Part shown: positions 5,135 to 64,000 of the stretch, one piece after another | Numbering within the stretch: position 1 is the first letter of the stretch | Layout of the letters: the number at the start of each line of letters is the position of its first letter | Source: Phycisphaerales bacterium | GTDB taxonomy: Bacteria; Planctomycetota; Phycisphaerae; UBA1845; Fen-1342 | DNA length: 64,000 nucleotides | Direction of reading: 5' to 3' | Assembly (NCBI GenBank): GCA_003162245.1 | Contig: PMMM01000196.1 | Span: forward strand, 8,900 to 72,899 | Program-made: the position numbers and the translations under genes | The notes under the pieces: model-generated | The model's input: the letters and a program-made list of their open reading frames with translations, nothing else | What the model was told of the DNA's origin: nothing | Database searches by the model: none

Positions 5135-5156
5135 CCGGCGGGGACGGAGCGAGGCC

Positions 5157-23826: not shown

Positions 23827-23880
23827 TCCTCTCTCGAGGCGCCCACGATCCGTCTGCGTGACACGCGCGCCGCGCCTACG

Positions 23881-25472: not shown

Positions 25473-25502
25473 GGGCGACTCCTTCGCAAGCTCGACCGCG
25501 CG

Positions 25503-33485: not shown

Positions 33486-33976
33486 GCAGCCGCGGGCGGC
33501 TGGAGCCTGCTGGCGCTCAAGGGGCGCTCGGTCCGTCGGTCGCAGGTTCGCAGCGGGAGTGGCCGGGCAACCAGAGGCTGGCGAAGGTCCGGATAAACGA
33601 CCGAAATGGGCTGAATCGGCGGGACGGCGGGCACCCATGTCCGTGCTGGGGGGCAAGTTGCGGCGCTGGACCTAGCCGACGGAGGGGTGGGGCCGGTCGC
33701 CAGAGCTGTCGGCTCGATAGCGGGGGGCGGAAGGAGGCCTGGCCCGGGTCAGGTCCGCAAATCCGGTCGGATTTCTGTTGCACGAGGACCACCGGCGCCG
33801 TAGACTGACATGAAGATTGAGAGAGGCCGAGACGCAAAGGGCGTTTCGGATGTGTTTTGCGATACGGAGTGAGGCAGAAGCCACCAGATCATCTGTGCGA
33901 AACCAGCGTACGCTTGGGCGCGGATGATCGAGTACCGTCTGTCGTTCGACAACGGGAGACGTGAGAGGAGGAAGGT

Positions 33977-34897
33977 ATGCGATCCAGTTGTTTTGCGTGT
34001 GTGGTGGGTCTGTTGCTAGCGGCGTCGCCGGTCTTCGGCACCTCGCTTTACAGCCAGGATTTCGAAGTCGACTCGACCGCGAGTTGGACGGTCAATAACG
34101 GGCCGTCGGACGCCGCGGCTAATTTCTTCTTCGACTATTCCACGGTTGGCATCCCCGCCGCGCCCGGCGGCACGGGGACACGCGGCATGAAGCTGCAGGC
34201 CAACCTGAACAACGGCGTTTTCGGTGGGATGAGCGCCTCGCCGATCGGCCAGAGCTTCACCGGCAACTACACCGTCGAGTTCGACTGGTGGGAGAATTGG
34301 AACGGCCCGTTCCCGGGCGGCGGGAATGGCTCGACCAATATGGGGACCTACGGCATCGGCACCGCTGGGGCTACGACACAGTGGCCGGGTGGCGTCCAGG
34401 ACAGCGTCTGGTTTGCCGGCACCGGGGACGGCGGCTCGGCCCAAGACTGGCGCGCCTACTCCAGCGCCGCGGCGACGGGCTACCTAGTGGCCAGCGGGGT
34501 GTACGCGTTCCCGAGCCAGAATAACACCAACGCCTATTTCGCCACCACCTTCCCCGCCAGGACCGCGCCGGCCGCGCAGCTCGCCCTCTATGCGCAGCAG
34601 ACCGGCTCCACGGCGGTCGGCAGCGGCGGCATGGCATGGCACCACGTTGTGATTGCGAAGGTGGGCACGACCGCGACGTGGAAGATCGACAATCTGCTGA
34701 TGGCGACCATCGATCTCACCACCGTCACCCTCGGCGGCGGCGACATCTTCTTCGGCCACAGCGACGTCAACGTCGGATCGTCGACCGACCCGCTTAGAGC
34801 GGACCTGTTGTTCACGCTGATCGACAATGTCCTCGTTACGCCGGAGCCCGGGTCGCTGCTCGTGCTAGCGCTGGGCCTGTTGCTGCGACGGCGTTAG
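33977..34897 (+). CDS. PEP-CTERM sorting-domain secreted protein (ConA/LamG-like lectin-type body)
   Basis: GAGGAGGAAGG precedes ATG 33977. Signal peptide present. The C-terminus TPEPGSLLVLALGLLLRRR is a PEP-CTERM motif. Confidence 0.8.
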   Translation: MRSSCFACVVGLLLAASPVFGTSLYSQDFEVDSTASWTVNNGPSDAAANFFFDYSTVGIPAAPGGTGTRGMKLQANLNNGVFGGMSASPIGQSFTGNYTVEFDWWENWNGPFPGGGNGSTNMGTYGIGTAGATTQWPGGVQDSVWFAGTGDGGSAQDWRAYSSAAATGYLVASGVYAFPSQNNTNAYFATTFPARTAPAAQLALYAQQTGSTAVGSGGMAWHHVVIAKVGTTATWKIDNLLMATIDLTTVTLGGGDIFFGHSDVNVGSSTDPLRADLLFTLIDNVLVTPEPGSLLVLALGLLLRRR

Positions 34898-44432: not shown

Positions 44433-44999
44433 CCGGCAGGTTTCGGCTCTCACCTCTTCGCTCTCAGGTCTCAGCTCTTAGCAATCAGGCTACTTCCGTT
44501 GGCGGTGCTGAAGTCCGTGCGGGCAGGGTCTTGCTGCAAAGTCCGAGTAAGTAGCAGGTGTCCTCTGGTGGCCGGCGGCGCGGCTGCCAGCTTGCCGCGA
44601 CCGGGGCGGGGGAGCGCTTGCCGGCGGGGGGGTTTATTTCGCACTCTTTGCTAAGCAGCACGCCGTGTGGTCGCGCGATGCGGCGTGCGGCGTGTTGTTC
44701 TCGGGCGTCGGACTTGTGGCGGCGTTCGGGGCCGCGCGGGACGGCGGATCGAAGCGTCGAGGCAGCGGGCCAGCACAGTTGTTACTGGCCGGCGCCGCGG
44801 GAGGTCGGAGAAGAACGGCCGTCCGGCGAGCGAGCGCGGGTTCTGTCGTGGGGCCTCGGAAACCGGGTCGCTCGCGGGCCTAGGGTTTGGTAGTCCATCG
44901 AGGGAACGCCAGGTTCGACCCGCCTCTCCGCCGTGGATCTCGCCAGAGAAATGGAACCTCGCCGATTGGCGCCGCAGGGCGCACGGAAAGGAACTCAAG

Positions 45000-45917
45000 A
45001 TGCGTACGAACCTACTCGTGGCGGTGTTCTTCGCGGCTGCGGTGAGCGTGGCGCGGGCGGATCTCACGCAGTCCTTTCAGAACTTCGACAGCGTCTGGGA
45101 AATCGGGTCTTCCGGCCTCCAGTCGTCCTACTTCGGTGACACGAAGCTCGGCCAGCCCGTGACCGGCGCGACCACCGGCAACCTGCTCGAAACGCTCGGA
45201 CCCGCGCGGGTGTCGTACGGCTCCGGCGTCGGCCCGGTCCCGAGTCCCGGCGGCTCGCTCGGACAGCAGTTCGACCAGGGCGTGCTCGGGCTCCGCACGG
45301 ACGGCAACAAGCTGGTGCTGCAACTGGCCACGGCGTTGAATCCGCTCACGGGTTACTACTACGACGGCTACAACAGTTGGTACGACCAGGGCGATCTGTT
45401 CGTGGACGTCGCGGACGACGCCGGCCTGCGCCACTTCGCATTGTTGAATGCCTGGGGCCGCGATTCGGACAGCAGCCCGATCTCGCTGAACGGCGGGCAC
45501 TTCTCCGCGGCGCAGACGTTCCACCTCAGCGGCGGGGCGGGCGGCAGCAGCCTCGAGGGGCATCTGGTGCAACTCAGCACGAACAACCAGGTGACGATGA
45601 CCGGTGGGACGGGCGCGTACGACGGCAGTAACGCTCCCACCGGGCTCGATCTGCGTACCTACGCCTCGGGCGGCGTCGATCTGGGCTCCGCCAGCCTGCT
45701 GAACGCCGCGACGACGTACTCGGGGCACACGTGGTACCTCCAAACGTGGACGTTTGACCGGAGCGAGCTGTCGACGGCCAGCGTTTTCGACATCGGTCTG
45801 CACGCGGCAGCCAGTTGCGGCAACGATCAGATCGGGGCGCGCTACACCGTGCCCGAGCCGGCGTCGTTGCTGCTGGGAATCCTCGGCGCCTTCCTGCTGC
45901 GTAAGCCCTACGCGTAG
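45000..45917 (+). CDS. PEP-CTERM sorting-domain secreted protein
   Basis: ATG 45000 follows GGAAAGGAAC. Signal peptide MRTNLLVAVFFAAAVSVARA. C-terminus VPEPASLLLGILGAFLLRKPYA. Confidence 0.8.
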   Translation: MRTNLLVAVFFAAAVSVARADLTQSFQNFDSVWEIGSSGLQSSYFGDTKLGQPVTGATTGNLLETLGPARVSYGSGVGPVPSPGGSLGQQFDQGVLGLRTDGNKLVLQLATALNPLTGYYYDGYNSWYDQGDLFVDVADDAGLRHFALLNAWGRDSDSSPISLNGGHFSAAQTFHLSGGAGGSSLEGHLVQLSTNNQVTMTGGTGAYDGSNAPTGLDLRTYASGGVDLGSASLLNAATTYSGHTWYLQTWTFDRSELSTASVFDIGLHAAASCGNDQIGARYTVPEPASLLLGILGAFLLRKPYA

Positions 45918-51352: not shown

Positions 51353-52285
51353 TCAGGCGAGCTCGTTGACCGCCCGCACGACGTCTGCCGGTGCGATACG
51401 CCAGTCGTCCGGTTTGGCCGCCGGGTCCCCGGCGAAGACGCGTACGCTCGGCCCCAGGGGCCGCCAAATGCTCGGCGAGGTCGGGCCGAAGATCGCCACC
51501 GTCGGCGTGCCCAGGAGGGCGGCCAGGTGCGTGGGCCCCGCATCGTTGCCGACGAAGGCGTCCGCGGCGGCGAGGAGCGTGACCAGCTCCTCGGGCGACG
51601 GCGCGCGAACGAGCGGGAACTCGTCAGCGAGGGTCGCTAGCTCGTCGGCGGGCCAGGTTTCCTGCTCGACGTGGCCGACGACGAAGCGAATCGCGCGCTG
51701 CTCCTCGCGTCGCAGGCGGCGCGCGACTTCCATGAAGCACGGCAGCGGCCAGCGTTTCGCGCGGCCGCCGCTGCCGGGATGAAGCACGATTCCGCCGCCG
51801 GGCCGGCGCAATTCGTTCGGCACGCCGAGGGCGCGGTGCGCCGGGTGCTGGTGGACGCACTTCGGTACGAGCAGGCCCTGGGCCTCCAGTTGCGTGATCC
51901 ACTGCTCGGTGATGTGCCGCTGCACGCCGTCGCGCGGACGCGGATCGAAGCTGTACAACGCCGCGGGGGCCAACTCGGCCAGGCGTCGGTGCACGGGCGT
52001 GTCCGGCCCGCCGAGTGCGTTGAGCACGCGCGCCCCGCGGACGACGCCCGACAACCGCTCCGGCGACGGGTCGTCGCCGTCGCCGAACAACCAGTGCAGT
52101 CCCAACCCCTCCGGCGATTGACGCCGAATGCTCGGCCGGCAATGGGACAGGTCGCCGAGATTCGTGCGTGAAATGAGGCGCAGATCACTCGCGGTGCACG
52201 CACCGGGGAGGCGCAGCGCGAGTTGGATGGTCAGTACCAAGTCGCCCAGCGCCCCGCCGTGCAGGATGAGCCAGTCGTCGGCCAT
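51353..52285 (-). CDS. Glycosyltransferase family 9 (LPS heptosyltransferase-like)
   Basis: Start at ATG 52285 (MADDWLILHGGALGDLVLT). The C-terminal FVGNDAGPTHLAALLGTPTVAIFGPT is typical of GT9. The remaining 5' part of the 491-aa track ORF is out of frame over the DinB gene. Confidence 0.8.
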   Translation of the reverse strand: MADDWLILHGGALGDLVLTIQLALRLPGACTASDLRLISRTNLGDLSHCRPSIRRQSPEGLGLHWLFGDGDDPSPERLSGVVRGARVLNALGGPDTPVHRRLAELAPAALYSFDPRPRDGVQRHITEQWITQLEAQGLLVPKCVHQHPAHRALGVPNELRRPGGGIVLHPGSGGRAKRWPLPCFMEVARRLRREEQRAIRFVVGHVEQETWPADELATLADEFPLVRAPSPEELVTLLAAADAFVGNDAGPTHLAALLGTPTVAIFGPTSPSIWRPLGPSVRVFAGDPAAKPDDWRIAPADVVRAVNELA

Positions 52286-52314
52286 TGCGTCGCGCTCGTT
52301 CGTGGCACACGCGG

Positions 52315-52797
52315 TCACATTTTGTGCACGCCCTTGATCGTCTGGACTTGCCCGGCGTGGTACACGTCGTGCATAGCTACGCCACGGATCAGCATCGCCT
52401 TGCTCACTTTCGAGCCGGCGTGGGTGGCGTCGAGTTGTCCGGCCGAGAGCTCTGCGACCGCCGCGCGCAGCGCCGCGTGCTGAGATTGGAGCAGCGCCAC
52501 GTACTGCCGCCACACGGCCGGCGTGGGCGGGTCGGGCAACGCAAACCAATTGCTGCCCTTCAGCGGGAAGGAGCCGCGTTTGTCGCCGCGCAGCCAGCGA
52601 CGGGCGGCGTACTTCCAGTAGGCGCAGTGGACGACGAGCTCGGCGATGGAATGGTGGCCCGTTCGCCACGCGGCCTGCGTGGCGGACAGCCCGCGAACGC
52701 TGCCGCGGAGGTTGGTCCCGTGCCAGGACTTCTTGTTGTAGGCTTCGTCGAGCAGGGACAGTAACGGCTCGATTCCAGAACTGGCCTTGGTCTTCAT
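52315..52797 (-). CDS. DinB-family (four-helix bundle, metal-binding) protein
   Basis: Start at ATG 52797 (MKTKASSG). The His triad context is HCAYW ... MHDVYHAGQ, with the typical length of ~160 aa. Confidence 0.75.
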   Translation of the reverse strand: MKTKASSGIEPLLSLLDEAYNKKSWHGTNLRGSVRGLSATQAAWRTGHHSIAELVVHCAYWKYAARRWLRGDKRGSFPLKGSNWFALPDPPTPAVWRQYVALLQSQHAALRAAVAELSAGQLDATHAGSKVSKAMLIRGVAMHDVYHAGQVQTIKGVHKM

Positions 52798-52837
52798 GTG
52801 ACCTCCCACCGGCGGCACGCCGCGTCACAGCGGGCGT

Positions 52838-53203
52838 TTATGTCGCCGCCGCCGCACCGCCCGCGGCGGCGGCCTGCTGCCGGCGGCGACGGACCGTCTC
52901 GACGGTCGTGGCCTGCTGTCCCGTCGAGGCGTCGGCGTTCTCCATCGTCAACAGCACAGCATGGTACCCCATCTTCGGCAGGCCGTTGTGCCACAGCAGT
53001 TCGCCGTTGCGTTTGTCGAGGCACCAGACGCGGCCGTTGGCGCCGGCGAAGAGCAGGTGGTTCTTGATGACGATCGACACGGGCTCGCCGACGCCGCTGC
53101 ACCGGGGCAGCTTCACCCGCCAGAGTTCCTCGCCGGTCCAGGGGTCGAGGGCGGCGACGATGCCGTTGGTGCCGAGGTAGAGAGGGTTCTCCATTCGCGC
53201 CAT
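52838..53203 (-). CDS. Mini PQQ-like beta-propeller repeat protein (about two blades) with Ala/Gln-rich tail
   Basis: Start at ATG 53203. It has two repeats of the PQQ/BamB-type pattern, GIVAALDPWTGEELWRV and GRVWCLDKRNGELLWHN. It is 121 aa. Confidence 0.55.
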   Translation of the reverse strand: MARMENPLYLGTNGIVAALDPWTGEELWRVKLPRCSGVGEPVSIVIKNHLLFAGANGRVWCLDKRNGELLWHNGLPKMGYHAVLLTMENADASTGQQATTVETVRRRRQQAAAAGGAAAAT

Positions 53204-53231
53204 GTGGCCCTCCTGGGCAAGTTGCTGCTTG

Positions 53232-54365
53232 CTACTCAGGACTCTTAACTGGACGTGCGATCCAGCCGCCGCCAAGGACGATCTCGCCGTCGTAGAAGAC
53301 CGCGGCTTGGCCAGGCGTTACCGCGGCCTGGGGCTCGGCGAACCGCACGTCTACATGTCCGTCACGATCGGTGCGGATCTCGCCCGGCGCCGCGGTGTGA
53401 TGATACCGAATCTGGACTTGCGCCGCTCGCGGCACACCCGTCGGCGGTGGGTCCGCGAGCCAGTTCACCTGTTCCGCGATCAGGGCAGTGCTCAGCAGCT
53501 CCGCGCGCGGGCCGAGGACGACCGTGTTCGCCGCGGCGTCGAGCCTGGTTACGTACAGCGGCTGGGCGGCCGCGATCCCCAGGCCGTGCCGTTGGCCGAC
53601 GGTGTAATTGACGATGCCGGCGTGCGTGCCGAGCACGCGGCCCCGTGAATCCAGCACGTCACCGGGGCGCTCGGTCTCCGGCCGCCGGGCGCGGACGAGC
53701 TGGGTGTAGTCGTTGTTCGGGACGAAGCAGATTTCCTGGCTTTCCGGCTTGTCATGCACGGGCAACCCGAGGTCGGCGGCGATCCGCCGGACCGTGGCCT
53801 TGTCGGCGATCTCGCCGAGCGGGAAGCGGCAGCGCGGCAGGTTCGGGCGCTGGATGCCAAAGAGGACGTAGGACTGGTCCTTGGCTTGGTTGAGGGCGCG
53901 GGCCAGACGCGGGCCGTCCTGCGCAGGCAGCACACGGGCGTAATGCCCCGTCGCGACGATCTCCGCGCCGATCATGTCCGCGTACGCCAGCAGCTTGCCA
54001 AACTTGAGTTGCGTGTTGCAGACGACGCAGGGGTTCGGCGTGCGGGCGCGGGCGTACTCGTCCACGAAGTACTCGATGATGCGCTCGAACTCGGCGTGGA
54101 AGTCCACGGAATAGAAGGGGATGCCCAGCTTGGCCGCGACGGCCCGCGCGTCGCACGCGTCGCCGGCGGAGCAGCAGCCTTGCTTCAGCCGCGGCAAGGC
54201 GGGTTCGGAGGCGGTCCGCGCAGCGGACCCTACGGCCTCGGCCGCCTCCCCGACCCACATGAACACGCCGACGCAGTCGTAACCCTGCTCCTTGAGCAGG
54301 CAGGCCGCGACGGAGGAATCCACTCCGCCGGACATCGCGACCAGGACCTTGCCGTTGCGGGACAT
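53232..54365 (-). CDS. mnmA: tRNA 2-thiouridine(34) synthase MnmA
   Basis: PP-loop VAMSGGVDSS, conserved CC/GD and CN motifs (QGCCSAGD, CVVCN), and a full-length 377-aa MnmA pattern. Confidence 0.95.
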   Translation of the reverse strand: MSRNGKVLVAMSGGVDSSVAACLLKEQGYDCVGVFMWVGEAAEAVGSAARTASEPALPRLKQGCCSAGDACDARAVAAKLGIPFYSVDFHAEFERIIEYFVDEYARARTPNPCVVCNTQLKFGKLLAYADMIGAEIVATGHYARVLPAQDGPRLARALNQAKDQSYVLFGIQRPNLPRCRFPLGEIADKATVRRIAADLGLPVHDKPESQEICFVPNNDYTQLVRARRPETERPGDVLDSRGRVLGTHAGIVNYTVGQRHGLGIAAAQPLYVTRLDAAANTVVLGPRAELLSTALIAEQVNWLADPPPTGVPRAAQVQIRYHHTAAPGEIRTDRDGHVDVRFAEPQAAVTPGQAAVFYDGEIVLGGGWIARPVKSPE

Positions 54366-54378
54366 GGCTTAATCATAG

Positions 54379-54410
54379 GGATTGAGGGATTGAGGGACAA
54401 AGGGATTGAG
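54379..54410. repeat. Four tandem 8-bp units GGATTGAG (third unit degenerate, GGACAAAG)
   Basis: Read directly: GGATTGAG GGATTGAG GGACAAAG GGATTGAG. It lies 14 nt upstream of the mnmA start codon (on the opposite strand) and downstream of gspE. Confidence 0.7.
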
Positions 54411-54450
54411 GCAGCAGCCACGTCGGGAGCGGCGGTGGTCGGCGGCCGCG

Positions 54451-56130
54451 CTAGACCTTCGTGACGCGCAGCACTTCCTGCGGCGTGGTGTGGCCGGCGC
54501 GGCAGATGCGCCAGCCCTCCTCGCGCATCAGCACCAGGCCTTGCTTGCGGGCGACTTGCAGGATCTGCGAGGCCGATGCCTGGTTGATTACCATCTCACG
54601 CATCTGGTCGTTCATGACGAGCAGCTCATACAACGCGCGTCGGCCGGAGAAGCCCGTGTTGCGGCACTCCTTGCAGCCCTTCCCACGATACAGCACTTCG
54701 CCGCGCTTGTAGCCGAAGTCCGGCGGAAAGAGGTGGGGGTTCTCGGGCACCCATTCCTCTTTGCACCACTTGCAGACGGTCCGCACGAGACGCTGGCCGA
54801 GGACGCCTTCGAGCGAGCTGGCGACGAGGAACGGCTCGACGCCCATGTCGAGCAGACGCGTCGTCGCGGTGACGGCGTCGTTCGTGTGCAACGTGCTGAA
54901 GACCAAGTGGCCGGTGAGCGAGGCGTTGATGGCGACCTCGGCGGTCTCCTTGTCGCGAATCTCGCCCACCAGGATGACGTCCGGGTCGTGCCGCAGGAAG
55001 CTCCGCAGCGCGCGGGCGAAGGTCAGGCCGATCTTGGGGATCACGTGCGTTTGATTGACGCCCTCGAGGTAGTATTCGACCGGGTCCTCAATCGTGAGGA
55101 TCTTCAACTCCGCGCTGACGATCGACAGCAACGCCGCGTAGAGCGTGGTCGTCTTGCCCGAGCCCGTGGGCCCGGTGACGAGCATGATCCCGTGCGGCCG
55201 GGTGATGAGGTCGTGGAACGTGTCGTACGTCGGCCCCTCCATCCCGAGCATGTGCAAATCGAGCTTGACCGACGTGCGGTCCAGGATACGCAGGACGATC
55301 CCCTCGCCGAAGGCCATCGGGATGACGCTGACGCGCAGGTCGATCTCGCGACCGTGGGCCTTGATCTTGAATCCGCCGTCCTGCGGCAGGCGGCGTTCGG
55401 CAATGTTGAGGTTCGAGAGGATTTTGATGCGGCTGATGATGGCGTTCTGGAAGCGGCGGATTTCGGGCGGGACGTTGGCGACCTCGAGCACGCCGTCGAT
55501 GCGGTAGCGGACGCGGAAGTCGTTCTCGAACGGCTCGTAGTGAATGTCGCTGGCCCGCTGGCTGATCGCCTCGCTGAGGATCTCGTTGACGAGCTTGATG
55601 ACCGAGGCTTCCTGGGCGAGCTGAACGTCGAGGTCCTCGGACTCGACCTTCTTCTCGTCGATGATCTCGAGGTCGCCCTTCTCGTCGACCATCTCCTGGA
55701 GCACTTCGCCGCCGACGCCGTAGAACGCGCGGATGAGCTTCTGGATCTCGGTGCGTGGGGCGAGGATGGGCTCGACGGGCATGTTGATGCAGGTGCGGAC
55801 CTCGTCGAGCGCGTACATGTTGTAGGGGTCGGAGGTCGCGATGCGGACGCCCTTGCCGTTCTTCGTGATCGGCATGAGCCCGTAGCGGTGCACCAGCCGG
55901 CTCGGAATCAGCTTGAGCAACTCGCGGTCGATGTCGGCCTCTTTGAGCTCGATCACCGGAATGCGGAGCTGCTCGCTGAAGACGTCGAGCACCGCCCGCT
56001 CCGTGACGTAGCCCTCGCGAATCAGGACCTGGTCCATGCGCTCGCTGGGCGAAGTCCGCTTGGCGGTCGCCTCGGCGAGCTGGTCCGCCGTGATGAGGCC
56101 CTTGGCAACGAGGTCTTCCCCAATCGGCAT
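54451..56130 (-). CDS. gspE: Type II secretion / type IV pilus assembly ATPase (GspE/PilB family)
   Basis: N-terminal T2SSE_N-type repeats (IGEDLVAKGLITADQL...). Walker A GPTGSGKTTT, Asp box, Walker B ILVGEIRD, His box STLHTND, and a tetracysteine cluster CKWC...CKEC. Confidence 0.9.
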   Translation of the reverse strand: MPIGEDLVAKGLITADQLAEATAKRTSPSERMDQVLIREGYVTERAVLDVFSEQLRIPVIELKEADIDRELLKLIPSRLVHRYGLMPITKNGKGVRIATSDPYNMYALDEVRTCINMPVEPILAPRTEIQKLIRAFYGVGGEVLQEMVDEKGDLEIIDEKKVESEDLDVQLAQEASVIKLVNEILSEAISQRASDIHYEPFENDFRVRYRIDGVLEVANVPPEIRRFQNAIISRIKILSNLNIAERRLPQDGGFKIKAHGREIDLRVSVIPMAFGEGIVLRILDRTSVKLDLHMLGMEGPTYDTFHDLITRPHGIMLVTGPTGSGKTTTLYAALLSIVSAELKILTIEDPVEYYLEGVNQTHVIPKIGLTFARALRSFLRHDPDVILVGEIRDKETAEVAINASLTGHLVFSTLHTNDAVTATTRLLDMGVEPFLVASSLEGVLGQRLVRTVCKWCKEEWVPENPHLFPPDFGYKRGEVLYRGKGCKECRNTGFSGRRALYELLVMNDQMREMVINQASASQILQVARKQGLVLMREEGWRICRAGHTTPQEVLRVTKV

Positions 56131-56204
56131 GGCTGTGTCTAACCTTCTCCTGGACAGTAAGTTACGGGCGCACCTTCCGCAGGCGACCTGCCTGCCCGGC
56201 AGTT

Positions 56205-56210
56205 ATTATA
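56205..56210 (-). promoter_or_regulatory. Candidate -10 hexamer (exact TATAAT on the minus strand) for gspE
   Basis: The minus strand reads CGGTATAATAACTG about 70 nt upstream of ATG 56130. AGGAGAAGG is the likely RBS between them. Confidence 0.3.
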
Positions 56211-56329
56211 CCGCCGGGGCGCGGGCGGGATGCGACTCCTATGACAATCATCGGCACGAATTTGCGCCTCCTGTTCTGACCCGGGCCCGCTACCGGCTGC
56301 AACCCCCGGTCATCGTAGTCACGGCGAAA

Positions 56330-56338
56330 TGGTATAAT
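56330..56338 (+). promoter_or_regulatory. Candidate extended -10 promoter element TGGTATAAT for the pseudopilin gene
   Basis: An exact TGnTATAAT lies 83 nt upstream of ATG 56421 in a GC-rich divergent intergenic region. Confidence 0.35.
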
Positions 56339-56420
56339 AGCGACCAAGTGGCACAGGGTTGCGCAGCGCGCGAGCTGGTGCCCGCGGCGCCAACCGTCTC
56401 TGGCCTTTACAGGTGAGTTT

Positions 56421-57509
56421 ATGGCACGCGCAGATTTGAGGGTAGCGCTGCGGTCGACGGTCCGGCCGGCCCGCGGTTTCACGCTGATTGAGCTGCTCAC
56501 GGTCATCGCGATCATCGCTTTGCTCATTGCGATCCTGATGCCCTCGCTGTCGAAAGCACGCGATGCGGCCAAGAACGTCCGCACGCGCGGCACGATGAAG
56601 AGCATCAGCGACGGCCTGGAGCTGTTCGTGGGTGAGAATGAGGACGAATGCCACGGCAACAACTACCCGCCCTCCCACGCCGGCGACGATCCGACCGAGG
56701 AGGACAAGGCCGGTGACGCAAACGTGCTCGGGAATGAGCAGATGTTCGGCTGCCAGTGGCTCGTGCGCTACCTGATGGGCAAGAACCTCGACGGGTACGT
56801 GCCCAAGCGGAGCGTGCCTAAGATCTGGGATGAAACCGTCGGCGGTCCCGCTGGCTGGGGACAAAAGCTGTGGTACGGCAAGCCGGGCGACACCGGCTGG
56901 CCCACCCAACTCACCGAACCCCTGGCGCGGAGCGGCCCCTACATGGGCCAGGCGATCGTTCGCCCGCCGCGCGATCTGGCGGGCTCGCCGGTGGACGATT
57001 CGACCGGCGGGGCCCCGAAATGGGTGAATTGGGTGTTCGTGGACGCCTACAACCTGCCGATCCTCTACTACGCCGCCAACTCGCGCTACGCGGATCGGCC
57101 AAACGCGACGCTCACGACGTGGGACAGCGACCCGAACGCCGGCTGCCCGCCCGGCATCTACACGTGGCGCGACAATGCGCTCTTCACCGGCCTGACGTCC
57201 GAAACCTCGACTTCACGCGACGTTACCATCCCCGCTTGGGACTTCGGCGGCGGCCCGCACAAGCTGACCTTCGGACCGCAGGCGTGGAGGACGGGCGCGA
57301 CCGCCGCAACGTCGCAACATGACGACATCAGGAGCCACACGCAGTCCTTCGCGTACTGGATCATGAACAAGCAGATCTTCGAAACGACCTTCGGCCTTAA
57401 CGGCGCCTCCAAGGCCAATGTCGTGCCGACACGGCGCGACACTTTCCTGCTCTGGAGCCCGGGCAAGGACGGCGTGTTTGGGACCGGCGACGACATAACG
57501 AACTTCTAG
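56421..57509 (+). CDS. Prepilin-type N-terminal cleavage/methylation domain protein, oversized GspG-like pseudopilin
   Basis: RG|FTLIELLTVIAIIALLIAILMPSL prepilin motif and a C-terminal LWSPGKDGVFGTGDDITNF resembling the GspG Ca-binding C-terminus. It is 362 aa. Confidence 0.85.
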   Translation: MARADLRVALRSTVRPARGFTLIELLTVIAIIALLIAILMPSLSKARDAAKNVRTRGTMKSISDGLELFVGENEDECHGNNYPPSHAGDDPTEEDKAGDANVLGNEQMFGCQWLVRYLMGKNLDGYVPKRSVPKIWDETVGGPAGWGQKLWYGKPGDTGWPTQLTEPLARSGPYMGQAIVRPPRDLAGSPVDDSTGGAPKWVNWVFVDAYNLPILYYAANSRYADRPNATLTTWDSDPNAGCPPGIYTWRDNALFTGLTSETSTSRDVTIPAWDFGGGPHKLTFGPQAWRTGATAATSQHDDIRSHTQSFAYWIMNKQIFETTFGLNGASKANVVPTRRDTFLLWSPGKDGVFGTGDDITNF

Positions 57510-57537
57510 GGCGGCTTCAATTAGGGTGCGTCGCCTT

Positions 57538-57589
57538 GGGAGGGCGAGCCTCCCGGCGAACCGCGGCTCGGCAGGAGCTTCGCCCTCCC
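57538..57589. repeat. Long imperfect palindrome (REP-like hairpin / possible terminator)
   Basis: GGGAGGGCGA...TCGCCCTCCC forms a 10-bp perfect stem, extended by ~5 further pairs with one bulge and a 20-nt interior. It lies 28 nt after the pseudopilin stop. There is no T-run. Confidence 0.5.
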
Positions 57590-57794
57590 GACAGCAGGAG
57601 CCTCGTCCTTCCTGTGGCCAAGCCAGACGCGCGCGGGCCTCCGGCCCGTGCGGCGGGGTTGCGGATCGTTTATCCTGTGCGCCCGAGGCTGCGGCCGCCT
57701 AACCGTCGCCGCGGCCGGTTGTCCAAGCTATATGCGAACCCGGGCGGGTGTGCCGCCGGGCCACGGGCTTCTCGGGCTGCAAGAGGTCTACGCC

Positions 57795-59117
57795 ATGCGA
57801 GTACTGCGAATGACGGCTGTGGTAGGGGGGTGGTTGCTCATCGGGCTGGCGTCGGCCGGGGCCCAGGACATCGCCAAGGAGCAGAACAAGCTGCTCGCCA
57901 AGCGGGCGGCCGAGGCCGACGCCTACCGCAAGCTGGCGGAGATCGTGTACGGGCTGCAAATCAACTCGCGGACGTACGTGCGCGATTTCGTGACGGAGTC
58001 CGACGACATCCGCGGCGAGGTCGACAGCTTCATCAAGGGGATTCGCCTCGGCACGCCGACCTGGTACGAGGACGGTTCGTGCGAGGTCCCCGCGGAGGTG
58101 ACGGTCGCGAAGGTCGTCGAGGTTCTGCGCTCTGCGCACGACCGCTACTACAAGGGCGACGACGTCAAGACCAGTGACTTCGAGTCGATCACGAAGCGTA
58201 TCGAGAAGAACGTGATCAAGGTCGTTGGAATGGGCGCGCCGCGCCCGGATCTGCCGCCCGACCTGCCCCAGGGGGCCGTGGAACTCCTCGGTCCGCCGCC
58301 AAGGGAGCTGCCCAAGCCGCCGATCCCGGCGATCTGGGCGAATCTCGGGCCGGAGGCGGCGCGGGCGCGGCTCATGGCCATCCAGGCCGCGCACGTCGAC
58401 GCCCTGCGCAAGCTGGCCGAGCGGCTCAAGGGCCTGCGGCTCACGTCGCGCACGCAAGTCCGCGATTTTGTGACCGAGAGCGACGAGGTCCGCGCCGACA
58501 TGGATGCGTTTCTCAAGGGGGCCGAGGACGTATCGACGTACCTCCATAACGACGAGCTGATTGCCGAGGTCACGCTGCGCGTGCCGACCGAGCAGGTCAT
58601 CACCACGATCAGGTCGCTGCACAGCCGGCGCTACAAGAACAACGACCCGGACGAGACCCGGGGTCACGACATCGAAGAGGTCGTCAAGACCATCGTGAAG
58701 AAGGATTTCGAGGCGACCGGCATGGGCGTCCCGCCGCCGAAGTACATCCAGGCGTACGCCGAGCGGGTCGAGCTCCCCGATTGGGCCGCCGATTACGTCA
58801 AAGCGGACGGCGAGGGCACCGACCCCGCGATCGACACGCCACAGGGCAAGCTCAAGGCCGCGCGGGCCGCGGAGATGGATGCGAAGCGGAAGCTGGCGGA
58901 GCGAATCGCCGGCCTCCGGTTGCGCGGCGATACGACCGTCCGCGATTTCCTGACCGCGCACGACACAGTGGACACGCTCGTGCAGGCGTTCATCGCCAAC
59001 GCCGAGGTGCTCAAGACGGAGATCACCGGCGAGACGGCGCATGTGACGGTCGGCGTGCCCGGGATGCAGGTGTTCGGGGCGATCGACGAGGGGATGCGGC
59101 GGGCGGCGCGGCAATAG
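57795..59117 (+). CDS. Exported protein composed of three ~160-aa repeats of an LPP20/FlgP-like module
   Basis: Signal peptide MRVLRMTAVVGGWLLIGLASAGA. The repeat core RKLAE-x3-GL-x-(I/L)-x-SRT-x-VRDFVTESD occurs at residues 45-72 and 205-232, with a diverged copy at 365-392. The family assignment is by motif resemblance. Confidence 0.6.
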   Translation: MRVLRMTAVVGGWLLIGLASAGAQDIAKEQNKLLAKRAAEADAYRKLAEIVYGLQINSRTYVRDFVTESDDIRGEVDSFIKGIRLGTPTWYEDGSCEVPAEVTVAKVVEVLRSAHDRYYKGDDVKTSDFESITKRIEKNVIKVVGMGAPRPDLPPDLPQGAVELLGPPPRELPKPPIPAIWANLGPEAARARLMAIQAAHVDALRKLAERLKGLRLTSRTQVRDFVTESDEVRADMDAFLKGAEDVSTYLHNDELIAEVTLRVPTEQVITTIRSLHSRRYKNNDPDETRGHDIEEVVKTIVKKDFEATGMGVPPPKYIQAYAERVELPDWAADYVKADGEGTDPAIDTPQGKLKAARAAEMDAKRKLAERIAGLRLRGDTTVRDFLTAHDTVDTLVQAFIANAEVLKTEITGETAHVTVGVPGMQVFGAIDEGMRRAARQ

Positions 59118-59179
59118 GCTGCGACCGCAATTTGGATTTTCGGTTTTCGATTCTCGGTTTTGGATTTGAGGGATCAGTC

Positions 59180-59344
59180 ATGGTCAAGTGGTGCTGCCGA
59201 ATCGGCGTGCTCGTGTGCGTGTTGGCCGGCCTCGTGACGGCCACCGGTTGTCACAAACGCACGCATCGCGAAGTACAGGTCCACGAGGAAACGCACGAGG
59301 GCCAGGTGCACGAAGCCCCGCGCGGCGAAATGGTCCCGGAGTAG
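59180..59344 (+). CDS. 54-aa His/Glu-rich lipoprotein candidate
   Basis: ATG 59180. MVKWCCRIGVLVCVLAGLVTATGC has a hydrophobic core plus a lipobox-like A-T-G-C. The mature part is HKRTHREVQVHEETHEGQVHEAP. It sits 11 nt before the next gene. Confidence 0.45.
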   Translation: MVKWCCRIGVLVCVLAGLVTATGCHKRTHREVQVHEETHEGQVHEAPRGEMVPE

Positions 59345-59355
59345 CAGCCCCGCCT

Positions 59356-60708
59356 ATGAGATCGTTGCGTTTCGCATGGCCGGCCGCGGCACTCCCGCTC
59401 CTGGCGGCGCTTTTCGGCATCTTCGCCGCACACGCGGCACCGCCGAGCAGCGCGCCGGCCGCCCCCACGGCTGCGCAGCGCAAAACGCTCGAGTTGCTGG
59501 CACTCGGCAAGGCGCGCACGGAAGCGCTCCAGCGCATACGTGCGTTGCCGCTCACGCGTGAGGCTGGCGTCGGCGATTGGGTGACGGGCAGCGTTGAGCT
59601 GGACCGCGCCCTGCGGCTTTGGGTGCGCAATCGGCCGGCGGAGGGCCAGTTGCGCCAGTATTCCGATGCGGTCTGCGAGGTCGACGTCGCCATTTCGCCG
59701 GACGACCTGCGCGACCAGTTGCTACGGCTGCTGGATGAGTTCGGCGCCGCGGCCGGTGTGCGCGGGGTGGACGCGGCGGCGATTCAGGCAGCAGCGAAAC
59801 GCTGGCCGATGGTGTGGACGACCGGCAGCGCCGCCCTCGCCGAGCATCCGGTCACGGACCGGCCGCCCGGGTGGGAGGATGTCACGAGCACGGGCCTGGA
59901 CTTGGCACGACAGGCCGCCGAGGCCGACGCGTATCACGCGCTGCTCGATGAGGCGGGGCGGTTGAAGGTCACCGCGGCGCGGCGATTGCGGGAGTTTTTC
60001 GACATCAGCGACGCCGTCCGCAACGCGGTGTACGACGGCGTGCGTAAGGAAAGCAAGACCAGCACGCAGTTCGAGCCGGACCAGATTGCCGTCGCCACCG
60101 TGCGGATCGGCATCAAGGATCTGATGCGCATCGTGACGAAGGCCCACGACGACCAGTACCGCGGGGAGGACTTCACCGCGGCCGATTTTCGCGAGATGGT
60201 GCTCCTGGCCGGGCGGGACGAACTGAGCGCGACCGGGCTCGCCCCGCCGCCGGAGCGTACGATCCTGCGGAACCGCTACACGCCGATCGAGCTTGATGCG
60301 CCGGCGTGGGCCGGCGACACGCGAATGGCCGTTGGCCACTTCGAGCCGGTGGAGGGGCAGTCGCCGGATGCGGCGACGCAGTACCAGGCCGCGCGCCTGG
60401 ACGCGCTCGACCAATTGCGGCGGAAGGTCGAGGCGCTGGTGATCCAGCAGAACGTCAGCGTCGCGGAATTCGTCGGTTACCATCAGGACCTGAAGGACGA
60501 CGTCGTGCTGTTCCTCAGCGGGGCGCGCGTGATTCGCCGCCAGGTCCGCCCGGACGGTGGGGCGGAGGTCGAAGTGGAGCTGCCGCTGCGGCGGCTGTGG
60601 GAAATCGTGCGGCGGGATATGAAGCTCGAGGAAGTCGAGCCGGCTGAGACCGCGACCGGGCCGGCCAGCCCCGCAACGCTGCCCGCCCCGCAGAAGGAGA
60701 ATCCATGA
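59356..60708 (+). CDS. Exported paralogue with three diverged LPP20/FlgP-like modules
   Basis: Signal peptide MRSLRFAWPAAALPLLAALFGIFAAHA. Modules start near ARQAAEADAYHALLDEAGRLKV and AARLDALDQLRRKVEALVI. It ends in an ATGA overlap with the next gene. Confidence 0.55.
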   Translation: MRSLRFAWPAAALPLLAALFGIFAAHAAPPSSAPAAPTAAQRKTLELLALGKARTEALQRIRALPLTREAGVGDWVTGSVELDRALRLWVRNRPAEGQLRQYSDAVCEVDVAISPDDLRDQLLRLLDEFGAAAGVRGVDAAAIQAAAKRWPMVWTTGSAALAEHPVTDRPPGWEDVTSTGLDLARQAAEADAYHALLDEAGRLKVTAARRLREFFDISDAVRNAVYDGVRKESKTSTQFEPDQIAVATVRIGIKDLMRIVTKAHDDQYRGEDFTAADFREMVLLAGRDELSATGLAPPPERTILRNRYTPIELDAPAWAGDTRMAVGHFEPVEGQSPDAATQYQAARLDALDQLRRKVEALVIQQNVSVAEFVGYHQDLKDDVVLFLSGARVIRRQVRPDGGAEVEVELPLRRLWEIVRRDMKLEEVEPAETATGPASPATLPAPQKENP

Positions 60709-61925
60709 GAGTTGTGCTCGTCGCTCTCCTGTGTTCCGCGTGCATGCTGGCCAGTGCGCAGCCGGAAGAGGCTCCAGCCCCGCCGCCGCCGGAGCGGGAG
60801 CCCGAGGCGAAAGTCGTCCGGGTGACCGCGGAGGGGTACAACCGCGACGACGCGCTAAAGCAGGCGCTGCGGAAGGCGGTCGAGCAGGGGGCGGGCGTGG
60901 AGATTTCGGCGCATTCGAACGTCGAGAACTTCGCGCTGATCCGCGACACGATCTACAGCCGGGCGGCCGGCCTGGTCAGCGACTACAAGGTCCTTCAGGA
61001 GCGCGAGGGCCCCGGGGGCACTGTAGAAGTCACGATCGAGGCGACCGTCCGCCCGAGCACCGTCGCGAAGATGTGGGGCGAGGTACAGAACGTCCTCGAC
61101 CAGATCGGCCGGCCCAAGATCATGGTCTGGATCGACGAGAAGATCGACGGCCGCCTGGAGGACGACTCGGTCGTCGAGAGCCGCATCGAGCAACTGTTCC
61201 TGAAGGCCGGCTTCGACCTGGTCGAGCGGAAGGCTGTCGAGGACATCAAGCACCGCGAGGCCGCCGACGCCCGGGATGAGCGGGACGCGGCCAAGCTGGC
61301 CCGTCTGGCCAAAGACGCCGGCGCCCAAATCCTGATCCGCGGCTCGGCGAACGCCGACCGCGTCGGGGTGCGCGACATCTACGGGGCGAAGGCCGCCTTC
61401 TACAACTGCGGCGTCCAGGCGAAGATCTACTACACCGACACCGGCAAGCTGCTGGTGAGCGAGTCGATCCCGACGCGCGAGCGCGGCGTGCGGTCGTACC
61501 ACGAGTTCAGCCCGCCCGCGGCCCGGGCCGCGCTGGTCGCCGCGACGTTTCCCGACACGGATAATCGGCGTGAGCCGGTGCTGGCGGTCAAGCTGATCGA
61601 CGCGGTGATGGAGCAATGGTCGACGCAGATCACCGCCGCGGGCGACATCGAGCTGGAGGTCGACCGGCTCGACTTCAAGACGTACGTCGAGCTGAAGAAG
61701 GCGCTGGCCGGCTTCAATCCGGATCGCATCCGCTCGGTGGAGGGCGACTTTTCGAAGGGGACGGGCCTATATCGCATCAAAGCGCAGATGTCGGCCCAAA
61801 CGCTGGCCGAGCGGCTCACCGAGAAGCCGTTCGCGGCGTGGATCGAGGTGCTCGACCTGAAGCCGAACCGCATCCAGGCCCGCGCGGTGGACCGGCCGCA
61901 CGCCGTGCCTGAGAGCCAACCCTAA
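60705..61925 (+). CDS. Exported three-domain protein, FlgT-like (LPP20-like N-module, CsgG/LpoB/TolB-N-like alpha/beta middle, C-terminal domain)
   Basis: AAGGAGA RBS and a signal peptide. N-module: AEGYNRDDALKQALRKAVEQGAGVEISAHSNVENF. Middle: KIMVWIDEKIDG...IEQLFLKAGFDLVER...AGAQILIRGSA. The domain calls are by pattern resemblance. Confidence 0.5.
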   Translation: MRVVLVALLCSACMLASAQPEEAPAPPPPEREPEAKVVRVTAEGYNRDDALKQALRKAVEQGAGVEISAHSNVENFALIRDTIYSRAAGLVSDYKVLQEREGPGGTVEVTIEATVRPSTVAKMWGEVQNVLDQIGRPKIMVWIDEKIDGRLEDDSVVESRIEQLFLKAGFDLVERKAVEDIKHREAADARDERDAAKLARLAKDAGAQILIRGSANADRVGVRDIYGAKAAFYNCGVQAKIYYTDTGKLLVSESIPTRERGVRSYHEFSPPAARAALVAATFPDTDNRREPVLAVKLIDAVMEQWSTQITAAGDIELEVDRLDFKTYVELKKALAGFNPDRIRSVEGDFSKGTGLYRIKAQMSAQTLAERLTEKPFAAWIEVLDLKPNRIQARAVDRPHAVPESQP

Positions 61926-62046
61926 CGACAGAGGCACAACGCGGGCCGCGCGCGCAACCCACTATGGCGACCGCAGGGCGCGCGAGAAGACCGCGCGACG
62001 CAAATGTCGCGGCTCGGGTGGACTGCGTTCCCAACGAGGTAGAACA

Positions 62047-64000
62047 CTAAGGCCAGACCATGATGAGGTTGCCGAGGGACTGGGGGGAGTAGCAGTTGCC
62101 GCGGGCGCCGGACCAGGAGGAGTATTCGCCGCGGCGGGCGTCGAGGCGCGTGACGTTGAGCCCCCAGTAGTTGTTGCGCCGCGTCTGCGGGTCGAACGCG
62201 CCGAGGGGGATCGCGAGCTCGACGACCCAGGCGTCGCGGCCGACGGTCACGGCGACGCGCGCGCCGCTGGGCCAGACCTGCGAGGCCCCGATCGGCGGGT
62301 CGGTGCGGCAGCCCTTGCGGGCCACGAGCAGGCCGCTGGGCTTGACCTGTAAACAGTACAGGTCGCCGCTGGTTCCCGCGGTGGTGGGCCGCGGGTCGAT
62401 CAGGATTTCGACCAGGTCCTGGCCCCACGGGACGATGCCGTCAATTGGCATGGTGTTGTCGGCGCGCCAGAGCGGGGGCTCGCCGCCGCGGAGCGCGCAG
62501 CGCACGCCGATGTAGAGGTTTTCCGGGTCGAGACCGAAGAAGGCCTGGGTGGGCAGCGTCGGGCTGCTGAGCTCCGGGGTGCGGTGGCGGCAGAGGCGAA
62601 AATCACCGGCGGCATTGTTCGACGCGAGCGGCCAGTCGTCCAGTTGGCCGTCGATGACGGGCGGGATCTCGAGCGGCGGACAGGCGGCGACGGCCAGGCG
62701 GGCTTCGCGGCGAAAGGCCCCGAGGGCGGGGGAATCGAAGACCACGTCGAAGGGGTAGACGCCGTCGGCGTTGTACGCCAGTGACTTGAGGTCCACGTCG
62801 AGGCGTGTCGGACGCCGCGCGCCGGGCGCCACGCTGGCGGCCACGTCGGCGGGCGGGGTCCACTCGGGCGGCGGATTGGGCAGGAGCCAACGGCCGTCAA
62901 TCGGGCGGTTCGTGGCGTTGGACAGGCTCGTGAAGACCTGGGCTTGCAAGCCCTGTGGGGGTGCGGTCAGGCGGACGCCGTCCACGCTGATCGTGACGCG
63001 TTCGGCTTGGTTGAAGAGCAGGCTCCACTGCGAGAGGCTGGCGATCTGCTGCTGGCGCGTGGCGGGATTCGGCGCGAACTCGCCGGCCAACTCGCGGAGC
63101 ATCAGCAGGCGCGCGAGCGCGAGCACGGACGGCGAGGCCGGCCAGCCGGCTTCCTTGGTGCTGAGCAGGTTGTCGAGGCACGCGTCGGTGCCGACCCAGC
63201 GGACGACTTGGTCGGCCATCTTCTGCGCCAGAAGCTGCTGCCCGTTCGTCTCGAGGAGCCGCAGCAGCTCGTAATCCTGAATGCCGCGCCGCAGACGCTT
63301 CAGCCGCACGGACGCGACGGGACCGCGCTCGCGCAGCCCATACTCGTCGGCGGGGTAGATCAGGGCCGCGCCGTCGGATGCGAAGGCGCCGGCGGCGGGC
63401 GGCGGCGTCCGGAACTCGGCGGCGTGCTCGATCCAGAGGGCGGTGACGCCGCACGCATAGGCCTGCCACGGCAGGATGCGCGGGTCGTTGGCGGGGGCGC
63501 CGATCGCCAGGGTGCCGCTGTAGGGCGGGTCGCTGGGCATGAACCAAGTGGATTGCCCGAGACGGCGCTGCTGGGCCATGGCGTCGGGCTCGAACCACAT
63601 GGCGGGCGGGGCCCAGATGTCCACGCCGGTGAGCTCGATCGGCGGTGCATCGAACCAGCCCAGCCCGCGCAGCGAACGGGGGGGCAGATGGGCGATGATC
63701 GGCAGCGAGGTTTCGCTTTGGCGGACGATGGCCGCGGCACGCCGGACGTGCTCGACGGCCGCGAGCGAAAGTTGCTCGGGGGGGCAGAGGCGCAGCACAG
63801 TGCGCTCGCGCCAGCCGCGCTGCGCGAGATGTTGCTGGCACTCCTGGAGATAGCCGGCCAGCAGGCGGGCGTACTGCTGGGAGTCGAAGCCGCCGTTTTG
63901 CTGGGCGCTGGGGTACTCGACGGAGGCGGGGACGGGCCAGACTTCGAGCCGCGTGTGGTCTGCAAACGCGGAGCCGTCCAGCCAGCCGGACACCAGGCTG
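62047..64000 (-). CDS. DUF4091-type glycosidase-like protein with C-terminal CBM9/DOMON-like carbohydrate-binding domain (5' end may lie outside the window)
   Basis: VDIWAPPAMWF...STWFMPSDPPYSG...RILPWQAYACGVTALWIEHAAEF matches the DUF4091 pattern. The C-terminus IDGQLDDWPL...LYIGVRC...WVVELAIPL...YWGLNVTR is CBM9-like. The frame is open to the window edge. Confidence 0.7.
   Translation of the reverse strand, partial: SLVSGWLDGSAFADHTRLEVWPVPASVEYPSAQQNGGFDSQQYARLLAGYLQECQQHLAQRGWRERTVLRLCPPEQLSLAAVEHVRRAAAIVRQSETSLPIIAHLPPRSLRGLGWFDAPPIELTGVDIWAPPAMWFEPDAMAQQRRLGQSTWFMPSDPPYSGTLAIGAPANDPRILPWQAYACGVTALWIEHAAEFRTPPPAAGAFASDGAALIYPADEYGLRERGPVASVRLKRLRRGIQDYELLRLLETNGQQLLAQKMADQVVRWVGTDACLDNLLSTKEAGWPASPSVLALARLLMLRELAGEFAPNPATRQQQIASLSQWSLLFNQAERVTISVDGVRLTAPPQGLQAQVFTSLSNATNRPIDGRWLLPNPPPEWTPPADVAASVAPGARRPTRLDVDLKSLAYNADGVYPFDVVFDSPALGAFRREARLAVAACPPLEIPPVIDGQLDDWPLASNNAAGDFRLCRHRTPELSSPTLPTQAFFGLDPENLYIGVRCALRGGEPPLWRADNTMPIDGIVPWGQDLVEILIDPRPTTAGTSGDLYCLQVKPSGLLVARKGCRTDPPIGASQVWPSGARVAVTVGRDAWVVELAIPLGAFDPQTRRNNYWGLNVTRLDARRGEYSSWSGARGNCYSPQSLGNLIMVWP

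Follow-up and report, generated by a model that had tools for sequence, protein, structure and literature searches.

A conserved Phycisphaerae operon encoding FlgT-like and FlgP/LPP20-type proteins as a possible non-flagellar scaffold beneath the outer membrane

Within a stretch of 64,000 nucleotides from a Phycisphaerales bacterium (contig PMMM01000196.1; referred to below as the window, whose positions are used as coordinates), four same-strand genes, here named A, s54, B and C (57,795-61,925), were shown to form, together with the leader of about 250 nt preceding them, an autonomous, vertically inherited operon of Phycisphaerae, the order of which is kept over dozens of species. A and B are built of three FlgP/LPP20-type SHS2 modules each, C as modelled has the three-domain (N/M/C) architecture of FlgT and s54 encodes a mini-lipoprotein; judging from their N-termini, all four products are predicted to be exported. 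An earlier note on this DNA, made without database searches, had suggested that these proteins form a scaffold serving the adjacent GspE/PilB-type ATPase and large pseudopilin, i.e., parts known from type II secretion systems (T2SS) and type IV pili (T4P). This coupling fails the linkage test set beforehand, as neither neighbour was present in any of the 39 loci with a complete cassette. With regard to function, we regard it as an even call that the operon as a whole encodes a non-flagellar periplasmic ring or lattice scaffold under the outer membrane; its two components, namely that the products of A, s54, B and C make up a ring or lattice scaffold and that the role of the cassette is non-flagellar, are each held to be slightly better than even. 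The features concerned are:

57542-57794, plus strand: leader of ~250 nt upstream of A, moving with the cassette (92% identity to locus L005)
57795-59117, plus strand: A, 440 amino acids (aa), type-I signal peptide, three FlgP/LPP20-type SHS2 modules (Pfam LPP20 hidden Markov model [HMM], repeat HMM)
59180-59344, plus strand: s54, 54-aa mini-lipoprotein with lipobox and His/Glu-rich tail (sequence reading, tblastn)
59356-60708, plus strand: B, 450 aa, exported, paralogous to A, three diverged modules (BLASTP, repeat HMM)
60705-61925, plus strand: C, 406 aa, exported FlgT-like three-domain protein (FlgT_N HMM, repeat HMM, Foldseek)
54451-56130, minus strand: GspE/PilB-type ATPase with an N-terminal MshEN domain binding cyclic diguanylate (c-di-GMP), outside the cassette (Pfam and NCBIfam HMMs)
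56421-57509, plus strand: 362-aa GspG-like pseudopilin with an insert of ~245 aa, outside the cassette (N_methyl HMM and GspG alignment)

We are highly confident that the cassette is independent of gspE and the pseudopilin gene. When one genome was scanned for each GTDB species, 112 relatives of C were returned, of which 80 loci with 10-kb flanks were taken, and four loci from exact look-ups brought the set searched by tblastn with the window proteins to 84. The cassette was complete in the order A-(s54)-B-C, with B sitting between s54 and C, in 39 of these loci (29 of them with at least 6 kb upstream of A), C stood alone in 25, B and C only were found in two, and the upstream sequence was too short to judge in 18. 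Neither a GspE nor a pseudopilin homologue was detected within 10 kb in the 39 full-cassette loci or elsewhere in the 84 loci. Adjacency was seen only in the source species (about 24 contigs), and the window belongs to a contig of ~79.9 kb recurring in many samples. DNA identity to the nearest relative, L005, amounts to 93% over 4.4 kb and covers window positions ~57542 to 61934 only: it starts 33 nt past the pseudopilin stop codon, inside the left arm of a hairpin, an arm which is not conserved in L005, and ends 9 nt past the stop codon of C. On the upstream side, an unrelated divergent gene begins in L005, and downstream an M28-type peptidase gene replaces the gene found in the window. Likewise, unrelated genes flank the cassette in the cultured Phycisphaerae bacterium RAS1 and in the complete metagenome-assembled genome CP054190, and the three pseudopilin homologues examined for context (52-73% identity) were solitary in unrelated contexts, with both cassette and gspE absent. 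Based on the lack of linkage in 39 loci, the L005 break, the RAS1 and CP054190 contexts and the solitary pseudopilins, the adjacency of cassette and pseudopilin gene is lineage-specific; the position of the cassette next to these genes is a chance event of one lineage.

The tight packing of the four genes, with gaps of 62, 11 and -4 nt, was confirmed, and 285 nt separate the pseudopilin gene from A. The hairpin reported in this gap with a 15-bp stem (~57538-57589) is indeed present, its stem being composed of 11 + 4 bp, but it has no U-tract and its stability is no greater than that of shuffled sequences (z = -0.9); in a scan, terminator-like sites were not commoner than in shuffled sequence either. 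The leader at 57542-57794 presumably holds the cassette promoter and 5' untranslated region. No sigma-70-type consensus was seen in it, and the search of 54000-62500, leader included, against Rfam at E<=1 gave no match.

The module composition described in the earlier note, with three copies each in A and B and a seventh in C, was borne out. An HMM built on the three repeats of 29 A-family proteins recognized three domains in A (independent E-values [i-E] of 1e-37 to 1e-43), three in B (1e-3, 3e-12 and 5e-14) and one in C (residues 50-115, 4e-8), and none in the pseudopilin, which served as control. The modules of A, located at about residues 29-121, 189-281 and 349-438, are 35-42% identical among themselves. 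A scored above the Pfam threshold for LPP20 (PF02169; 50.4 bits vs 25.9), PF02169 is present in all A homologues and the NCBI name already attached to these is 'LPP20 family lipoprotein'. The Pfam scan of B was without a match; comparison of A with B by BLASTP gave an E-value of 7e-19 with register-shifted alignments. When the A-family profile was compared with PDB by sequence only, FlgP of Campylobacter jejuni (9hmf_C, E 7e-11), Vibrio (8z5n_2, 1e-8) and V. cholerae (9yds, 5e-7) were matched, and Lpp20 of Helicobacter pylori was not. By fold, Foldseek identified Lpp20 (5ok8, TMt 0.58) as best match to the AlphaFold2 (AF2) model of A, which has a predicted local distance difference test (pLDDT) value of 81, next to the C. 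jejuni scaffold chain 9hmf_A (TMt 0.54), both with a probability of 1.0. Module 3 of A aligns with residues 54-155 of C. jejuni FlgP almost without gaps through the segment of the ring-forming beta-hairpin. The signal peptides of A and B read as type I, ending in AxAQ or AHA without a Cys, and the N-terminal lipobox usual for the LPP20/FlgP family is found in neither protein. Within Phycisphaerae, A homologues share 60-84% identity; the names attached to homologues of C and A, which are 60-96% identical, are those of Phycisphaerae or Planctomycetota.

C consists of an SHS2 N-domain, a CsgG/FlgO/LpoB-like alpha/beta middle domain and an alpha/beta C-domain. Its Pfam FlgT_N score is 26.2 bits, under the threshold of 28.8, and the FlgT_M and FlgT_C HMMs gave no match to C at E<=1. 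Foldseek analysis of the AF2 model (pLDDT 78) returned FlgT as best fold, namely the FlgT chain of the Vibrio LPHT-ring (8z5n_0, E 7e-10) and FlgT 3w1e (E 1.6e-9); the alignments span 388-391 columns and the global TM-score is low (about 0.2-0.34), i.e., the domain orientations differ. Thus, the LPP20/FlgP and FlgT likeness that the earlier note had drawn from the letters held with regard to HMM, profile and fold, whereas FlgT_M and FlgT_C remained undetected, global TM-scores were low and A, B and C do not read as lipoproteins. The next Foldseek matches of the middle domain of C were CsgG (E 1.6e-5) as well as HpaA, LpoB and GNA1162 (E 1e-5 to 1e-4); the pre-pore likeness to the CsgG family (PF03783) is one of fold alone, as neither the CsgG nor the LpoB HMM matched C itself and a lipobox is absent. 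C carries a type-I signal peptide, and membrane-type alternation was not seen in its long strands on reading the sequence. Comparison of C with PDB by sequence, with a single sequence or a profile, returned designed proteins only (E ~0.03) and no FlgT chain. The NCBIfam HMM for the Leptospira protein LipL46 (NF033164), named a general outer-membrane lipoprotein, matched residues 46-230, i.e., the N and M domains of C (E 6e-10), with a score far under the cut-off (38 vs 400); unlike C, LipL46 is lipidated. Mean column identity among 26 C homologues was 62%.

The third type of component, s54, is a genuine gene: a small lipobox open reading frame (ORF) between A and B was found in 32 loci with the lipobox Cys in place (tblastn identity of 39-56%). 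Its mature part of ~30 residues follows the pattern ...EH(R/K)xVxVxEEQxEGEVxExxPGEM(I/V)VE with a near-invariant C-terminus. The earlier note had assigned a signal peptide or lipobox to all four products, which agrees with type-I signal peptides in A, B and C and a lipobox in s54, the latter being, as predicted from this motif, the sole lipidated product of the operon. On these grounds s54 would be the outer-membrane anchor of the complex. Four mini-lipoprotein ORFs of 45-62 aa, each with a lipobox, were also observed near the C-like gene of the distant locus L090 (9220-9751; 7826-7963), and small lipoprotein anchors may be a general trait of C-like operons.

As stated in the earlier note, no flagellar gene is present in the window: tblastn with 28 Escherichia coli flagellar and chemotaxis proteins gave no match in the 64 kb. 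Similarly, no core flagellar homologue was found in the 84 loci with their 10-kb flanks, although this count over 1.46 Mb of Phycisphaerae-side sequence is weak evidence, the loci being syntenic and non-independent. Hence, neither the association of FlgT genes with flgOP, motXY and flg/fli genes nor the arrangement named in the earlier note as speaking against its own proposal, a cassette normally embedded in flagellar loci, was observed. A match to FliI in L032 was in fact Rho, and one to FliA in L051 an RpoD/RpoS-like sigma factor. Clustering of flanking ORFs revealed divergent upstream genes in one subclade: 21 loci have one for an Rce1-like CPBP protease, 17 one for a thioredoxin-like protein and 15 one for a coiled-coil protein of 660 aa. 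These were ruled out as members of the unit, as neither the window nor RAS1 or CP054190 carries them, and their association is synteny at clade level. In the group with C alone (42-51% identity, Phycisphaeraceae-type names), ribH, nusB and ftsY come next in the same orientation, the distance often being no more than ~100 nt. This C-ribH-nusB-ftsY order without A or B was seen in L054, L059, L066, L071-L073, L082 and L084 at about 11,050-13,000 of the 21-kb loci, and L065 and L067 have an A homologue in convergent orientation directly after C. A CsgG or TPR partner was not found near any Phycisphaerae locus. Literature searches on LPP20 or FlgT in Planctomycetes and on RAS1 yielded nothing relevant.

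Such partners were found in a wider family of C-like proteins. A C profile compared with 1.84 billion representative proteins matched 4455 at E<=1e-3 and 134 at E<=1e-30 (E-values down to 1e-88), most of them of ~370-400 aa and matched over their full length. L090 encodes a CsgG-TPR lipoprotein, a three-module LPP20 protein, a 45-aa lipoprotein, a C-like protein and three further mini-lipoproteins, and shares with the cassette the order of three-module A-like protein, mini-lipoprotein and C-like protein. L091 encodes an LPP20-module protein, a TPR-SLH lipoprotein, a C-like protein and CsgG (108 bits), and the context of L093 was uninformative. A metagenome scan with the L091-type clade, using a profile from a 10-sequence subset, gave 228 relatives, 80 loci of which (772 kb) were kept; gene sets of this kind are those of L090, L091 and L098-L177. 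Among these 80 loci an LPP20-module gene was present in 56, a CsgG-family gene in 41 and a TPR partner in 42, one or more of these partners occurred in 39 when only the 43 loci with a length of 8 kb or more were counted, and core flagellar homologues were found in none of the 80. These environmental sets thus resemble the cassette in that full-length C homologues stand beside LPP20-module proteins, and differ from it by the presence of a CsgG-family lipoprotein and a TPR protein, true CsgG genes accompanying distant C relatives only and not the Phycisphaerae loci. GspE-like matches were limited to six of the 80 loci and represent MshEN domains or a pilT/pilU-like pair in one lineage; an MshEN-domain gene lies ~7 kb from the C homologue in L091 and L099. 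The pair, adjacent PilT/PilU-like ATPase genes ~4-6 kb upstream of the C-like gene in L172-L174 (43-50% identical to the ATPase core of the window GspE), is probably there by chance. In larger C relatives, fusion to TPR, transglutaminase-like or caspase (Peptidase_C14) domains was seen; in the fusion proteins P0255 (668 aa), P0234 (914 aa) and P0258 (911 aa) the middle domain weakly resembles FlgO, LpoB or DUF6175. A literature search for CsgG together with LPP20 returned nothing relevant. The constituent domains are already known; new are an operon of two unlipidated triple-module proteins, an FlgT-like protein and a dedicated mini-lipoprotein, its occurrence throughout the class and its kinship to a CsgG/TPR-linked set.

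In Vibrio, flgT adjoins flgOP, to which the joint encoding of C and A can be compared. The cassette resembles the Vibrio H-ring (FlgT, FlgP and FlgO; PDB 3W1E, 8Z5N, 9YEF/9YDS) further in the FlgT length and N/M/C layout of C, in the sequence homology of the A modules to FlgP and in products that are exported and predicted to lie near the outer membrane. Unlike the H-ring proteins, A and B have three modules each and are unlipidated, anchoring being left to a separate 54-aa lipoprotein; the cassette lacks a FlgO gene and Pfam FlgT_M and FlgT_C, C is ~12% identical to FlgT and the 84 loci are without flagellar neighbours. The Campylobacter flgP-flgQ basal disk (PDB 9HMF) likewise consists of FlgP-type SHS2 modules, the two-module FlgQ being encoded next to FlgP (PMC12222027), but its FlgP is lipidated and has one module only, with a long ring-forming beta-hairpin whose equivalent in A is modelled as partly helical, and the flgP-flgQ operon has no FlgT-like partner. 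The H. pylori lpp20 operon (HP1456 Lpp20 and HP1454; PDB 5OK8, 4KZS) likewise pairs a protein of LPP20 fold with a secreted one of three domains, the first of them resembling Lpp20 (PMC11756786). Lpp20, which is the best fold match to A, differs from it as a single-module lipoprotein unmatched by the A profile in sequence; by deletion, it is not a motor component and the motor structure stays intact without it (PMC11756786).

In Vibrio, the ring of FlgT is 26-fold and those of FlgP are 58-fold, whereas the FlgP rings of Campylobacter are concentric; a lipid anchor holds FlgP at the outer membrane, its C-terminal loop docks on FlgT_N, FlgQ resembles two FlgP repeats, and ring formation in the family accompanies an insert after the SHS2 helix (bioRxiv 10.64898/2025.12.02.691832; PMC12222027). 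For the cassette, we propose that C would oligomerize via its SHS2 and CsgG/FlgO-like domains and that A and B, adding six more FlgP-type modules, would widen the assembly sideways in a manner comparable to FlgP and two-module FlgQ in the Campylobacter basal disk. The conserved C-terminal strand of s54 may then dock on the unlipidated A/B/C assembly and tether it to the inner face of the outer membrane, the outcome being a periplasmic ring or lattice beneath this membrane. Such an envelope structure would be independent of the flagellum and constitutively needed, and would be neither a motor accessory nor a pilus or T2SS ring. More tentatively, and with the greater probability on the other side, the Phycisphaerae cassette and the LPP20/TPR/FlgT-like/CsgG sets may represent one undescribed, flagellum-independent ring or lattice family, the non-flagellar stock out of which FlgT, FlgP and FlgO of the Vibrio H-ring and Campylobacter basal disk would have been recruited, whose Phycisphaerae form would be constitutive and anchored by a mini-lipoprotein.

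Several points weigh against a non-flagellar scaffold. To our knowledge, the FlgT and FlgP rings characterized by experiment all belong to flagella. Flagellated species occur among Phycisphaerae, e.g., Phycisphaera mikurensis, and flgPQ of Campylobacter is also unlinked to other flagellar genes, which makes the absence of flagellar synteny weak evidence. At the sequence level, the A profile matched flagellar FlgPs (E 7e-11 to 5e-7) and not Lpp20. The predicted structures are of monomers and silent on rings; in the monomer AF2 model of A the segment corresponding to the ring-forming beta-hairpin of FlgP folds as short strands and helices, and the likeness of the C-domain of C to FlgT_C is seen only in the full-length Foldseek alignment. 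The CsgG and TPR partners of the distant relatives of C are missing from the Phycisphaerae cassette. Moreover, in L092 an FlgT_N-positive C-like gene (8001-9200) lies 2.6 kb from genes for a 775-aa flagellin (3032-5359) and a Maf/MptE-like protein (1-2567), in a genome which also has CodY and HslUV; it is the sole flagellar neighbourhood seen in the C family.

The operon could accordingly be a flagellar motor accessory, the Phycisphaerae counterpart of the H-ring or basal disk encoded apart from other flagellar genes, in which C would surround the LP-rings, with A and B as the disk and s54 as the anchor. To this we assign a lower probability, although it is the foremost competitor. It would account for FlgT-like and FlgP-like proteins sharing one operon, for FlgT as the best fold of C and for the flagellin near the distant homologue in L092; in addition, Vibrio FlgP binds FlgT_N (bioRxiv 10.64898/2025.12.02.691832), the several modules of A and B have a parallel in the two-module FlgQ (PMC12222027), flgP of H. 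pylori shares an operon with the gene of a lipoprotein, FapH (PMC11756786), and sheathed flagella have been reported in some planctomycetes (PMC7175336). Contrarily, the 84 loci of varied context have no flagellar gene within 10 kb, C is read in the same direction as ribH-nusB-ftsY in one clade, the wider family is partnered by CsgG and TPR genes instead of flagellar ones, and the Pfam matches stop at a sub-threshold FlgT_N. Owing to 84 + 80 loci without flagellar neighbours, the ribH-nusB-ftsY order, the CsgG/TPR partners and the dispensability of Lpp20 for motor structure, a non-flagellar role is slightly favoured here.

A role without any large scaffold, in which the products act as envelope factors, e.g., in LpoB-like regulation of peptidoglycan synthases, as a tether between outer membrane and cell wall or in CsgG-like export by the middle domain of C, is improbable. 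The CsgG, LpoB, GNA1162 and HpaA folds matched by this domain, the weak FlgO, LpoB and DUF6175 HMM matches of its relatives and the SLH-domain TPR protein of a distant operon point in this direction, as does the very high conservation, which suggests housekeeping. Against it stand the missing CsgG and LpoB HMM matches, lipobox and membrane-type strand alternation in C, and seven FlgP-type modules per operon better suit a polymeric assembly. Least probable by far, to the point of near exclusion, is the periplasmic or outer-membrane ring of the earlier note, which would serve a pilus or secretion machine powered by the neighbouring GspE-type ATPase and with the large pseudopilin as its building block. 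The genes adjoin in the window and in its same-species contigs, and pilT/pilU-like or MshEN-domain genes occur within several kb of C homologues in the few distant loci mentioned; against these are set the 0/39 linkage, the L005 break, the solitary pseudopilins, the 285-nt gap with its hairpin and the absence of GspF/PilC, secretin and prepilin peptidase from the window.

The neighbouring genes themselves are largely as first described. The ATPase matched Pfam T2SSE with 444 bits and MshEN, its N-terminal ~140 residues, with 67 bits; the NCBIfam scores for GspE (607) and PilB (591) are each under the equivalog cut-off, so that the protein may be called either. It passed the NCBIfam model of the MshE-type c-di-GMP-binding motif (43.6 vs 38) and is probably under c-di-GMP control. 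It is 45% identical to E. coli GspE, the only one of the E. coli GspC-O proteins matched by tblastn in the 64-kb window. No GspF/PilC, secretin or prepilin peptidase gene was found there or, in precomputed Pfam annotation, within +/-10 kb, and the partner genes of this orphan ATPase must be located elsewhere in the genome; in contrast to a T2SS/T4P machine, the window holds the ATPase and one prepilin-type gene only. A six-frame motif scan detected a single prepilin N-terminus, that of the pseudopilin (N_methyl 28.5 bits vs a Pfam cut-off of 21.2). E. coli GspG aligned with pseudopilin residues 10-88 and separately with residues 334-361, ~245 aa being inserted in between; the C-terminal alignment of FLLWSPGKDGVFGTGDDITN against DLLSAGPDGEMGTEDDITN has 14/28 identical positions (pairwise E 1e-4), in agreement with the GspG-like C-terminus proposed earlier. 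The pseudopilin is one of a large Phycisphaerae family of ~350-aa prepilin-type proteins, for which 2542 matches were obtained. The 290-bp divergent region between the two genes (56131-56420) does contain two TATAAT hexamers, one on the plus (~56333) and one on the minus strand (~56203); neither has a -35 element, and no -35/-10 pair passed a sigma-70-type promoter scan.

Further observations concern the surroundings. The trio of PQQ_2, DinB_2 and glycosyltransferase-9 genes beside mnmA-gspE (window 51353-53317) recurs in L089 (2751-4636), ~3.4 kb from a pseudopilin homologue and without gspE or cassette, which hints at local rearrangement around this trio. In L006 (PMIK01000018.1, labelled 'Gemmatimonadetes bacterium fen_1246'), positions 7461-10430 are 100% identical to window 58905-61874, beginning in mid-gene A, whereas positions 1-7460 are unrelated to the window, and no N gap marks the junction; since all other homologues are from Phycisphaerae, this contig, a GTDB representative, looks chimeric or mis-binned. 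As judged by eye from translations, the window also encodes three proteins with putative PEP-CTERM-like C-terminal signals (VPEP.../TPEP...; 23014-23880, minus strand; 33965-34897 and 44655-45917, plus strand), a putative CPBP-type membrane protease (22071-22817, plus strand), two putative phage-tail-collar/MdpB-like small proteins (23881-24408 and 24954-25502, minus strand) and a putative Mutator-family transposase (18883-19830, plus strand).

Taken together, a false lead is removed, as nothing here supports a new pilus- or T2SS-associated ring. Repeated recruitment of other proteins is considered to have given flagellar motors their outer-membrane disks and rings (PMC5758724), and the operon and its CsgG/TPR-linked relatives are candidates for the non-flagellar ancestors of FlgT, FlgP and FlgO or, alternatively, for a new envelope structure of Planctomycetota. 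The presence of the cassette in the cultured RAS1 makes this question accessible to experiment.

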